Below are positions 1-1,828 of a stretch of DNA of 1,828 bases, piece after piece. The position numbers are program-made. This DNA is from Escherichia coli (GTDB lineage: Bacteria; Pseudomonadota; Gammaproteobacteria; Enterobacterales; Enterobacteriaceae): assembly GCF_003334385.1 (NCBI RefSeq), contig NZ_QOWN01000107.1; one strand, 5' to 3'. Numbering within the stretch: the stretch's first letter is position 1; every line of letters starts with the position of its first letter.

Positions 1-1828
1 GCAACCAGCATTAGTGAAAATGAAATACCGACAATCACACACAGGACCTTTGCCGGCGTTATGAGTTTGTCTGACATCTTTACCCCTTGATAGCAGTAAT
101 TAACTGGGCAACCACCCATAAAAACGGAATCAGCCAGACCAGCAAAAATTTCCAGTCCATTTTTATCATCTTCATGCTGCGGTAGCTCTCCATGCAGCAA
201 GCAGACCAGCAATCCACTCAACACCTTTTGGGGTGAATTTAACCTGCGTAAAAGCATGACCATTGCCCGCCTCGCCCGTTTTCACGCTAAACCGCCCCGC
301 ATCCAGGTGATGCGAGTAAGGCGTCATTTTTCCAGCGAGGCGATACATTATTCCGTTCTCCAACAAAAACAGCCGGAAATCGGTTTCTTTGATACCGAGT
401 AACTTAGCAACTTCCCGGAATCCCATCAGACCAGATGCTTCAACATAGTTATCAACAAATTCAGCCTTCGGCGCTGCTATTGCCAGTTGATTTTCCAGCA
501 CTGCTTTCTGTTCAGCCAGTTTTGCCGCAAATCGCAACGCCTCAGGTAAAGTCCGGGGGATCTGAATACCATGCATCGCTTTGAGTCTTGCCAGCACAGA
601 ACGACGAACGGCCTTTGACTCCCTCATGCCAACGAGCATCATCTGGTCAAAATCCAGATCATAGTATGCCGTTCTTGTCTGGTTATTGTTTAACCGGAAT
701 TTTTTTCCGGTTCCATCAAGCTCTAGCTCATCCTCAATTTTTGCAAGAAACTTACGCGGTTCATGAGGGACTTCTCCGGCTTCTGCCCGGGCTGGATTAA
801 TAATGTTATTCAGAAAATCCAGACTACTCATGGATATTTCATGATCGACAGAAATCATCTCTTTCATGGTTGATTCCTTTTAGTGATGAACCCTGCGCAC
901 AGGAATAACCAGCCCAAAGAGGGTTAACCAGACCACTGCCGGTTATCCACCAGGGCTCATCCTGAAAGGTTCTTTGGTTTATTTACGCTTGTGCGAAGCG
1001 CAGAAATGACAAAGGCACCATTACGGTGCCTCTGCGTGAAATAATGTTCCTGACTTTATTCACTTACATTTTGCCAGCTCGCAGGATTTCGTGTTATCCG
1101 CCCGCGTTGGCCAACGTCATTTTTCAGCAAAATATTCTGCTTATCTGTCGATTCCCCAGCACGCCAGCGCGCTCTCCTGGTCTCGCCGGGATACCTGACC
1201 GTAACAGTTATTTGAGCGAATACGGCAGTCCCTGCCACCGTCCTTAATCCACCAGCGAATCGCCTCACATGCTCCCCTGCGATCACCAGCATTAATTCGT
1301 TTATAAAACGTCGACGGGAAACACTTACCGGGGCCAATGTTGTACGGACAGAATGACGCGATCCCCGCTTTCTGGGGTTCGGTCAGTGGCACCCGGATGT
1401 TTTTCTCCACCCATGCCAGCGCCTTATCACGCTCAATGGCATTAACCCGGTCGCATTTTTCCTTCGACAGCTTCATGCCAGGAATAACAGGCTTACCATC
1501 CACCCGGGTGGCTCCACGGCAGATGGTCCAGATACCCGCACCATCACGGTATGCTGTGGTGTGGTTGCCTTCTTTTTCATCCAGAAACTGGTCGAGAATG
1601 TCAGGCGCAGAAGCGCCAGCGGCAATCAGCGCCAGAACGGCAGCCGATAAACCATAGCGGAGTTTTCTGCTCACCAGTTCATTCTCCCCGCGCCGCCTTA
1701 CGCCGGTCCTCTCTGATTTTGAAATACAGGTTAGTCAGATATGTCAGCAGCCCAAACAGCAGACTCCCCAGCACGCCTATTGCCGCCCACTGAGACGGGG
1801 AAACCCTGTCCAGCAACTGCAGGAACCA

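Follow-up and report, generated by a model that had tools for sequence, protein, structure and literature searches.

The window analysed here, a stretch of 1,828 nucleotides of an Escherichia coli contig (NZ_QOWN01000107.1), holds part of a lysis cassette of the Stx-type lambdoid kind (Table 1). The Ant-family gene, referred to below as ant, sits between R and Rz, inside the late operon, and is separated from R by a spacer of 273 nt. The original prediction had placed the hairpin after the endolysin gene and ahead of an antirepressor-like gene, and this position was borne out, the PHROG match identifying the downstream gene.

Table 1. Genes and non-coding elements of the window, in the order in which they are transcribed.
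Feature	Coordinates	Strand	Basis
Holin S, 3' part, runs off the window	1679..1828	-	ORF list; holin S annotated here in relatives
Endolysin R, 177 aa	1141..1674	-	ORF list; relatives annotate lysozyme R or endolysin there
R-proximal conserved non-coding segment (3' UTR of R)	1055..1140	-	Comparison with relatives
Extended hairpin, 11 bp, GCAGAGGCACC/GGUGCCUUUGU, two G.U pairs, dG -18.8 kcal/mol	1009..1035	-	Folding
Core hairpin, 7-bp perfect stem AGGCACC/GGUGCCU, loop GUAAU	1013..1031	-	Sequence, perfect-stem scan, pairing probability
U-rich tail UUGUCAUUUCUG	1001..1012	-	Sequence, terminator-rule scan
Second small hairpin UGCGCUU-CGCAC-AAGCGUA ('GCGC...GCGC' hairpin)	984..1002	-	Spacer MFE, alignment A3
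Conserved ~100-nt block GAACCUUUCAGGAUGA...GGUUCAUCACUAAAAGG	876..972	-	Spacer fold, alignments, motif scan
Ant-family (antirepressor-like) gene, 231 aa	172..867	-	ORF list; PHROG phrog_63 'anti-repressor Ant', E = 1.3e-57

In TL-2011c, an Stx2c phage and SPN3UB, no ant stands between R and Rz. These phages share R and its 3' segment, the R-proximal portion of the spacer being common to relatives without ant and partly to the Salmonella phage SPN3UB. The ant coding sequence is mosaic, and a homology break falls at its start codon. As expected of a moron, the gene is present or absent at the same site among relatives; a sigma-70 promoter of its own and a downstream terminator, which also characterize morons, were not found for it. 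No sigma-70-like promoter was detected on the transcribed strand of the window or in the spacer copy of SE1, and within the window the sole terminator-like site on the minus strand lies upstream of ant, with none downstream. Searching the literature, we found nothing specific on transcript data for an ant gene located between R and Rz.

On the plus strand of the window, positions 1013-1031 read AGGCACCATTACGGTGCCT, and the minus strand, which is transcribed, gives AGGCACC-GUAAU-GGUGCCU followed by UUGUCAUUUCUG (1012-1001). The perfect 7-bp stem-loop is thus present on the transcribed strand exactly as it had been described. The range 1013-1043 assigned to the element needs amendment, since it contains the stem but leaves the U-rich tail outside, bases 1032-1043 being the 5' flank of the hairpin on the minus strand. 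Likewise, seven pairs are the correct length for the core only, the full stem extending to 11 pairs, two of them G.U. The U-rich tract was said to exist on the minus strand only, and indeed the plus strand runs on as CTGCGTGAAATA. A weak folding energy would have spoken against the element; the chosen 51-nt segment holding the hairpin folds at -18.8 kcal/mol, with a z-score of -4.4. When the R-ant spacer is folded as a segment of 286 nt, the seven core pairs form with a probability of about 1.0 and those of the stem extension with probabilities of 0.85-0.99.

With five G-C pairs among the seven of its core and a 5-nt loop, the hairpin has the GC-rich stem-loop of an intrinsic terminator, taken here as at least 5 pairs, at least 3 of them G-C, and a loop of 3-8 nt on the transcribed strand. 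Its location is also that of a terminator: it is non-coding, lies downstream of R (106-132 nt past the stop codon) and is oriented with transcription, in a spacer that holds no conserved ORF. A 39-aa 'hypothetical protein' that starts at an ATG in the hairpin loop in some 933W-type records is spurious, because its frame stops after 12 codons in the window and is frame-shifted in other copies.

By itself, the hairpin does not exceed chance expectation. Among 1000 dinucleotide shuffles of the whole 1828-nt window, 44% contained a perfect hairpin of at least 7 bp with a loop of 3-8 nt (mean 0.68 per window), and 33% contained a 40-nt segment folding at -18.8 kcal/mol or lower. What goes beyond chance is its position and its comparative context: it is the only site of the transcribed strand that satisfies the terminator rule, and it occupies the slot held by canonical terminators in related modules.

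The tail is the weak part of the element. In an intrinsic terminator, the stem is expected to be followed directly by a tract of some 7-9 nt in which U predominates. Here the tail UUUGUCAU has 5 U in its first 8 nt, in a run broken after 3 U, and its first U's are absorbed by the extended 11-bp stem. On the strand that is transcribed, no other site in the window conforms to the hairpin-plus-T-tail rule, and the hairpin itself does so at the bare threshold (5/8 U) when shorter stems are allowed. The terminator predictor proposed as a check gave a divided answer: positive at this threshold and negative in a maximal-stem scan of the window, a scan which also misses the terminator of the corresponding module in SE1. 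The U-tract is degenerate, and stray transcription is probably halted only weakly by the Stx-type copy.

The comparative context is provided by a widespread three-part module, a descriptive grouping made in the present analysis. Its first slot is taken by a hairpin and U-tail, its second by a small GCGC hairpin, and its third by a leader of ~100 nt with the capacity to pair with the ribosome-binding site. When the leader motif was used to scan viral contigs, 223 copies with 102 unique slot sequences were obtained. Among the non-Stx slots, a hairpin followed by at least 6 T of 8 was found in 60/80 (75%), against a background of 2% at the same loci; in these other copies the stem is followed at once by 6-8 U and is often preceded by an A-tract. 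About 90% of unique module copies keep some hairpin in the slot, although the stems themselves are of many kinds, and the two-hairpin arrangement is conserved throughout with a variable spacing of 8-20 nt. Downstream of the module, in enterobacterial phage late operons, lie genes for Ant, KilA-N-like, Rha-like or HNH proteins, and the window conforms, having an accessory gene of this kind inside its late operon. The upstream genes vary (Rz, R, tail genes); therefore, the terminator travels with the module and not with the upstream gene. The present hairpin stands at the expected place upstream of the GCGC hairpin, but its interrupted 5/8 U-run falls short of the at least 6 U of a canonical slot.

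The canonical slot terminators, found in Salmonella SE1, ST64B and Klebsiella/Enterobacter-type contigs, occupy the same place relative to the GCGC hairpin and leader, on the same strand; they differ from the present hairpin in carrying 6-8 U where it has UUUGUCAU. In the relatives without ant, TL-2011c, Stx2c phages and SPN3UB, a AAAACCCCG...CGGGGUUUU terminator after R stands at the same place relative to the 3' segment of R, and the AAAACCCCG...CGGGGUUUUGUGUUUCC hairpins at this point fold at -20 to -29 kcal/mol and have a similar tail. Canonical terminators of the slot and those after R share such a tail (UUUGU...UUUC), and one type shares a CGUAAUG core. It is with this 'GCCUCGUAAUGCGGGGCUUUUUUAU' type that the Stx hairpin aligns best, through the common core (z about 4, best of 71), a resemblance that is only suggestive of homology with the canonical slot terminators. 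The terminator-like reading of the original prediction is strengthened by these relatives, which carry textbook intrinsic terminators at the equivalent position. One further locus, L104, has a different hairpin followed by an identical 16-nt tail; it belongs to an unrelated high-GC phage and was set aside as a chance match.

The two other parts of the module are also present in the window. The GCGC hairpin occurs in nearly all module copies; in the window, a small GC-rich hairpin of this GCGC-N7-GCGC type stands 10-15 nt upstream of the conserved block, in a shifted register (UGCGCUU/AAGCGUA). In alignment A3, 92.6% of its cells are paired, and C-G to U-A double changes occur in 2/34 sequences. 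Its stem is fully recoded (UGUGUC/GACACA) in the copies L142 and L222. The leader is represented by a block of the form GAACCTTTCAGGATGA...GGTTCATCACTAAAAGG that runs up to the Shine-Dalgarno sequence of the gene which follows, and its CCUUU (969-965) is predicted to pair with the Shine-Dalgarno AAAGG of ant (880-876). The same fold was obtained for 7/8 divergent copies (z -1.3 to -3.3). In the block, 15/17 outer pairs are invariant and 4 pairs show double changes, a weak covariation because the sequence barely varies. A search of Rfam at E <= 1 with the window and eight divergent module copies returned no family and two noise hits only. Judged by its predicted folding, the leader block, 40-150 nt beyond the hairpin, would be the better candidate for holding ant expression down.

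Hairpins that sequester the ribosome-binding site precede the lysozyme gene e and the homing endonuclease gene I-TevI of phage T4, where the site is freed by transcription from a late promoter located within the hairpin. The leader block, and not the hairpin, resembles this arrangement, in that its 5' strand is predicted to pair with the Shine-Dalgarno sequence of genes whose untimely expression would be harmful, those for HNH proteins included. It differs from the T4 case in that no promoter was found within the block, either in the window or in the SE1 copy.

Variation among Stx-type copies was followed in a set of 112, gathered with the U-rich tail as search anchor; the tail UUGUCAUUUCUG itself is invariant in all of them. 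The R-ant spacer as a whole is 80-100% identical among Stx phages. The commonest variant, present in 44/112 copies, among them 933W and Sakai Sp5 and Sp9, carries a C.A mismatch and folds at -6.6 kcal/mol. All changes in the stem are one-sided (G.U, U.G, C.A, A.G, A.C), and no compensatory substitution, as covariation in a terminator would produce, was found among the 112 copies. In about 60% of them the stem is still perfect, or intact if G.U pairs are tolerated. Conservation is higher in stem and loop than in the immediate 5' flank, the loop GTAAT being almost invariant with a single GCAAT copy (L153). The one-sided changes and the mismatch in the commonest variant point to relaxed selection in the Stx lineage. 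About 10% of complete E. coli genomes have prophages with the hairpin version of the window; E. coli Sakai, for which a Term-seq dataset exists (GSE143631; PMC7547250), carries the mismatch variant only, at 1273653-1273690 (Sp5) and 1778097-1778135 (Sp9) on the + strand of NC_002695.2. Candidate carriers of the perfect stem are phage PhiR5_1, Stx1a phages such as LC744181, and E. coli 14EC001.

Terminators inside late transcription units have precedents. In P22-like late operons they are common and their role is unknown, the proposals being partial termination or the stopping of spurious, non-antiterminated transcription (10.1101/2020.10.05.325894). The intra-operon terminators of phage L (Zaworski et al.) are likewise GC-rich stem-loops with a U-rich tail between functional gene modules, in a late operon read from one promoter antiterminated by Q/gp23, a setting similar to that of the present hairpin. 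The latter has a much poorer U-tract than the predicted terminators of phage L, and it is part of a recurrent three-part module not described in that study (10.1101/2020.10.05.325894). Another intrinsic terminator of the late transcription unit is tR' of lambda and Stx phages, downstream of pR' (6S RNA, StxS). In lysogens, polymerase without Q modification halts there, and read-through begins when Q is produced (Sy et al. 2020, PMC7547250). Whereas tR' is strong, lies right after the promoter and yields an abundant Hfq-bound sRNA, the present hairpin is weak, lies several kb downstream and has no reported RNA product.

Polymerase modified by Q ignores intrinsic terminators, as established for lambda and phage 21 Q, so that a partial terminator should not set the R:ant ratio in lytic growth. 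This bears on the function first proposed for the hairpin, that of a partial terminator attenuating late lytic transcription and bringing ant below S and R. The terminator-like form and position agree with such a role, and of the two roles suggested for intra-operon terminators one is partial termination (10.1101/2020.10.05.325894). However, late genes of Stx phages are under Q control and antitermination (PMC8136144, PMC7547250), the U-tract is weak (5/8 U), the stem of the commonest variant, that of 933W, is weaker still at -6.6 kcal/mol, and the predicted sequestration of the ribosome-binding site by the leader would lower Ant synthesis more directly. We consider it improbable that the hairpin lowers ant relative to the lysis genes in this way.

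We tentatively favour the view, at slightly short of an even chance, that the hairpin is an element of the terminator slot which would act, at most, as a weak and leaky intrinsic terminator against polymerase not modified by Q. Temperate enterobacterial phages place the module before accessory genes that may be harmful (Ant, KilA-N, Rha, HNH endonuclease) in late operons antiterminated by Q, and in the Stx lineage the slot holds a stable stem-loop with a degenerated U-tract. Polymerase lacking Q, as in spurious or read-through transcription in a lysogen, may be partly stopped before ant, and during lytic growth Q-loaded polymerase would read through the hairpin, leaving the transcribed stem-loop in the S-R/ant message. 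What is observed is the hairpin with its structure and location, the module around it, and the canonical terminators that fill this slot in other phages; from them we infer termination itself, the polymerases that it would affect and any role in lysogens.

The same observations could be read as decay. A formerly canonical module terminator may have lost any measurable role in Stx-type phages and been kept only through recent divergence, as the degenerate U-tract against 6-8 U in other module copies, the broken stem pair of the most frequent variant, the one-sided changes without compensation and the frequency of chance hairpins of equal quality would all support. Conservation of the spacer says little here, because the whole of it is so similar among Stx phages. 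The retention of a perfect or G.U-tolerant stem in a majority of Stx-type copies, the better conservation of stem and loop than of the adjoining flank, and the persistence of a slot hairpin across the module nevertheless speak against it, and we regard mere decay as rather unlikely. Two stable hairpins flanking a short U-rich single-stranded stretch, a layout whose spacing is conserved across the module, also recall an RNA stability or processing element: cleavage in the CAUUUC linker would leave the first hairpin shielding the 3' end of the S-R message and the GCGC hairpin shielding the 5' end of ant, uncoupling their decay, and such hairpins should form after transcription even in messages antiterminated by Q. 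RNase E prefers R-N-cut-W-U-U; by eye, the linker has no perfect match to it, and in most module copies the first hairpin is an unmistakable terminator whose long U-run would be superfluous in a pure stabiliser. This role thus appears doubtful to a high degree.

Many Hfq-bound sRNAs ending in terminators are encoded by Stx and related prophages (PMC4104026; HnrS), and the 86-nt segment upstream of the hairpin is conserved, so the hairpin might form the 3' terminus of a regulatory sRNA, either transcribed from a promoter of its own or released by cleavage of the R 3' UTR, as with EHEC prophage sRNAs. AgvB, AsxR, HnrS and PasA-D are likewise short structured non-coding elements of lambdoid prophage late regions ending in a stem-loop, but none maps to the R-ant spacer: AsxR and EcOnc27 map 3' of stx2B, HnrS (= EcOnc10-12) downstream of Rz, and PasA/PasC upstream of holin. 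More generally, none of the known EHEC/EPEC prophage sRNAs was located in this spacer. The window has no Rfam match at E <= 1, AgvB, AsxR, Esr41 and STnc100 included, and no promoter-like site on its minus strand; the R-ant spacer of Sp5 has no peak in the whole Hfq-CRAC candidate table, and the tail (UUUGU...) is too U-poor for Hfq 3'-end binding. All this makes an sRNA very unlikely. A palindrome acting at the DNA level, GGCACC-N5-GGTGCC, bound by a dimeric protein, is scarcely credible. It would fit the perfect 7-bp inverted repeat and the nearly invariant loop, but other module copies have unrelated slot stems yet keep the hairpin and T-run that sign an RNA terminator, and the 933W variant breaks the palindrome. 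We know of no candidate protein that binds it. By eye, a sigma-54 reading of GGCAC-N5-TGGTGC fails the -24/-12 spacing.

Beyond the leaky-terminator reading of this one hairpin, the module as a whole may represent an undescribed and widespread cis-acting gate, made of a terminator, a small GC hairpin and a leader locking the ribosome-binding site, in front of potentially toxic accessory genes, a speculative proposal to which we give distinctly less than an even chance. Such a gate would be used by temperate phages of Escherichia, Shigella, Salmonella and Klebsiella wherever these genes enter the late operon. It would silence them twice, by the terminator against non-antiterminated polymerase and by the leader against translation, until the leader is opened by some trigger, for instance processing, a factor or temperature. 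The Stx-type copy would then be a variant with a relaxed transcriptional lock.

Taken alone, the hairpin matters little, being a fairly ordinary, unannotated and weak terminator-like stem-loop. It nonetheless offers an entry point to what terminators do inside operons read by antiterminated polymerase, and also to how antirepressor-like and KilA-N-like genes are silenced in lysogens of Stx and related phages. The variants of the slot, from a strong terminator through a perfect stem with a poor U-tract to a mismatched stem, constitute a natural allelic series. The silencing of such genes bears on prophage stability and, therefore, on the release of Shiga toxin.

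Within the spacer between the endolysin gene R and ant lies a stable stem-loop, carried on the transcribed strand in the terminator slot of a recurrent phage module, with a degraded U-tract. Sequence and folding confirmed the original observation of a stem-loop with a downstream U-rich tract, although its position needs correction: the stem-loop is inside the proposed interval 1013-1043, but the U-rich tail is outside. The plus strand reads AGGCACCATTACGGTGCCT, and the transcribed strand AGGCACC-GUAAU-GGUGCCU followed by the tail UUGUCAUUUCUG. The folded stem reaches 11 pairs by absorbing the first U's of the tail, and its core pairs have a probability of ~1.0 when the whole spacer is folded. 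The extended stem is predicted at -18.8 kcal/mol (z = -4.4 for the selected segment, a biased value since selected segments always look good), hence a control with 1000 dinucleotide shuffles of the entire window. A perfect hairpin of at least 7 bp occurred in 44% of the shuffles and a 40-nt segment at or below -18.8 kcal/mol in 33%; judged alone, the hairpin is thus within chance expectation.

Features of the window and of the spacer between R and ant
Feature	Position	Strand	Basis
Holin S, 3' part	1828-1679	-	ORF list
Endolysin R	1674-1141	-	ORF list
R-ant spacer, non-coding, 273 nt	1140-868	-	ORF list
86-nt non-coding segment directly after the R stop codon	1055-1140	-	
Hairpin, core stem-loop	1013-1031	-	
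Hairpin, extended stem	1009-1035	-	folding
U-rich tail	1012-1001	-	
Small GC-rich GCGC-N7-GCGC-type hairpin	984-1002	-	
Conserved block, ~100 nt, non-coding, directly upstream of the ant start	876-972	-	
ant, 231-aa gene	867-172	-	ORF list; PHROG match
8-bp hairpin inside the ant coding region, T-run to 707	678-698	+	
Small membrane ORFs and start of Rz	after ant	-	ORF list
Short hydrophobic ORFs between ant and Rz	80-217	-	

The minus strand carries every gene of the window, which megablast assigns to Stx-converting phages and their lambdoid relatives (identity of 96.8% to Stx1a phages across the full window length, 98.6% to phage PhiR5_1). S, R, ant and Rz are annotated in the matching phage records, and the 231-aa protein matches 'anti-repressor Ant' in PHROG (E = 1.3e-57), so the endolysin and the antirepressor-like gene had been named correctly. 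Of 5,426 complete E. coli genomes, 531 have the hairpin region, in every case on the chromosome and without annotation. Homology to most Stx2a phages ends at the ant start codon (~863-868): the match covers query 863-1828 and leaves out the ant body. The phages thus have the leader in common, and the gene that follows is swapped, a 231-aa Ant in the window versus a 189-aa Ant in 933W. The hydrophobic ORFs after ant (e.g. MKMIKMDWKFLLVWLIPFLWVVAQLITAIKG) have counterparts in PhiR5_1, annotated there as small 'hypothetical proteins'. The window's best terminator-like site is the plus-strand hairpin within ant, followed by seven T's; it would affect transcription that runs opposite to the late genes.

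A consensus terminator scan of the window with maximal stem extension did not call the R-ant hairpin. Such a scan pulls stems maximally into A/U tracts and its negatives are not to be over-read; as it also misses the obvious, if weakened, terminator of the SE1 module copy (L241, ~2437-2462; stem mismatch, U6 tail), its silence here counts little. When all stem lengths were tried, the hairpin just passed, with the threshold value of 5 T in 8, and no other site on the transcribed strand did.

The hairpin matches no described RNA in Rfam (window, E <= 1), among EHEC/EPEC prophage sRNAs or in the full table of Sakai Hfq-bound candidates, none of which falls in the Sp5 R-ant spacer. AsxR and EcOnc27 map 3' of stx2B, HnrS (EcOnc10-12) downstream of Rz, and PasA and PasC between the sialate esterase gene and the holin. 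Some records of the 933W type (HUN/2013, L007 1531-1650; PA12, PA21, PA29, PA42, vB_EcoS_P22) annotate a 39-aa 'hypothetical protein' that starts at the hairpin-loop ATG and runs from there across the GCGC hairpin and the block. This annotation is probably spurious: its frame ends after 12 codons in the window and is not conserved in other copies.

The meaning of the hairpin comes from its comparative context. Phages TL-2011c, Stx2c_PV98-693 and Salmonella SPN3UB lack ant and share R and the 86-nt segment following it, and they carry at the exact position of the window hairpin a canonical terminator, AAAACCCCG...CGGGGUUUUGUGUUUCC (-20 to -29 kcal/mol), with a tail similar to the window's; the Salmonella form shows a compensatory change relative to the E. 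coli one. Even the 'simple' lysis cassette therefore contains an internal terminator. In these loci (~1480-1520 in TL-2011c) it is strong, with symmetric A- and U-tracts, and stands between R and an unrelated-looking small membrane ORF followed by Rz. The 86-nt segment, kept only partly in SPN3UB, has a nearly invariant core, GGCGGAUAACAC(G/A)AAAUC.

Conservation of the ant-proximal part of the spacer extends far beyond Stx phages. Scanning with the 16-nt core of its block, we found 223 copies of a module made of a hairpin with a U-run, a small GCGC...GCGC hairpin 8-20 nt past it and, ~12 nt further, a conserved block of ~100 nt ending at the Shine-Dalgarno of a variable gene (Ant, KilA-N-like, Rha-like or HNH endonuclease). 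The module is located after Rz/Rz1 (e.g. in P22-like SE1 and in ST64B), after R (window) or among tail genes, and its terminators are alike across these contexts (GCCUCG-loop-CGGGGC-U6-AU.CCGCA), so that the terminator is part of the module and not of the upstream gene. Among 102 unique slot sequences, a hairpin followed by at least 6 T of 8 occupies 60 of the 80 non-Stx slots (75%), versus 2% of random same-locus segments; 19 of the 22 Stx-type slots have exactly 5 T of 8, and three fail. The window hairpin aligned best with the GCCUCGUAAUGCGGGGCUUUUUUAU terminator type (z ~4, best of 71), which is no more than suggestive of a relationship. The GCGC-type hairpin occurs in nearly all module copies, some with recoded stems (GCGU/ACGC; UGUGUC/GACACA).

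The block, GAACCUUUCAGGAUGA...GGUUCAUCACUAAAAGG, also occurs at loci L003 (1500-1606), L241 (2504-2605) and L005 and in ~120 viral contigs, and is conserved ahead of unrelated genes in phages of Escherichia, Shigella, Salmonella and Klebsiella. An invariant CCUUU in the block (969-965) can pair with AAAGG (880-876), the ant Shine-Dalgarno, to form the base of a long predicted helix, and 7 of 8 divergent copies are predicted to adopt the same fold, with modest z (-1.3 to -3.3). Covariation carries almost no information, as there is so little variation in sequence (invariant: 15 of the 17 outer pairs; double changes at 4 pairs). The block is non-coding, since reading frames differ among copies, and Rfam gave no match to it. 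It is a candidate cis-regulatory leader. IS629/IS3-family elements are inserted in the block of L043 (after ...CCGGTTTG) and in the first codons of ant in VT2phi_272 (after ATGAATATGATG), which suggests that the region is repeatedly inactivated or targeted.

A serious rival reading, favoured by the poor tail and by the damaged stem of the 933W type, is that the hairpin is a decaying remnant. A scan anchored on the invariant tail, not on the hairpin, gave 112 Stx-type copies: 53 with a perfect 7-bp core (-13.3 to -18.8 kcal/mol), 12 with a G.U in the 3' arm (GGUGUC; -12.3 to -16.1), 44 with the C.A mismatch of 933W, Sakai Sp5 and Sakai Sp9 (-6.6) and three singletons (-10.9 to -15.1). None of the 112 has a compensatory double change, and by this comparison the stem is free of visible structural selection within the Stx-type lineage. 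The hairpin pair may also be an RNA processing or stability element. The terminator interpretation is partly supported: the element is terminator-like and sits in a genuine terminator slot, but it is weak.

Intrinsic terminators are read through by Q-modified polymerase. The late genes of Stx phages, the lysis genes among them, are expressed from pR' with antitermination by Q (PMC7547250; PMC8136144). The proposed lowering of ant relative to the lysis genes by partial termination is consequently unlikely, and the hairpin should have little influence on the R:ant ratio during lytic growth; lower ant expression would more plausibly be served by the conserved block. The roles of intra-operon terminators 'are not known' according to a study of phage L, which proposes two, one of them an action on polymerase without Q (10.1101/2020.10.05.325894). 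If the hairpin acts, its target would be such polymerase, that is, spurious or read-through transcription in the lysogen.
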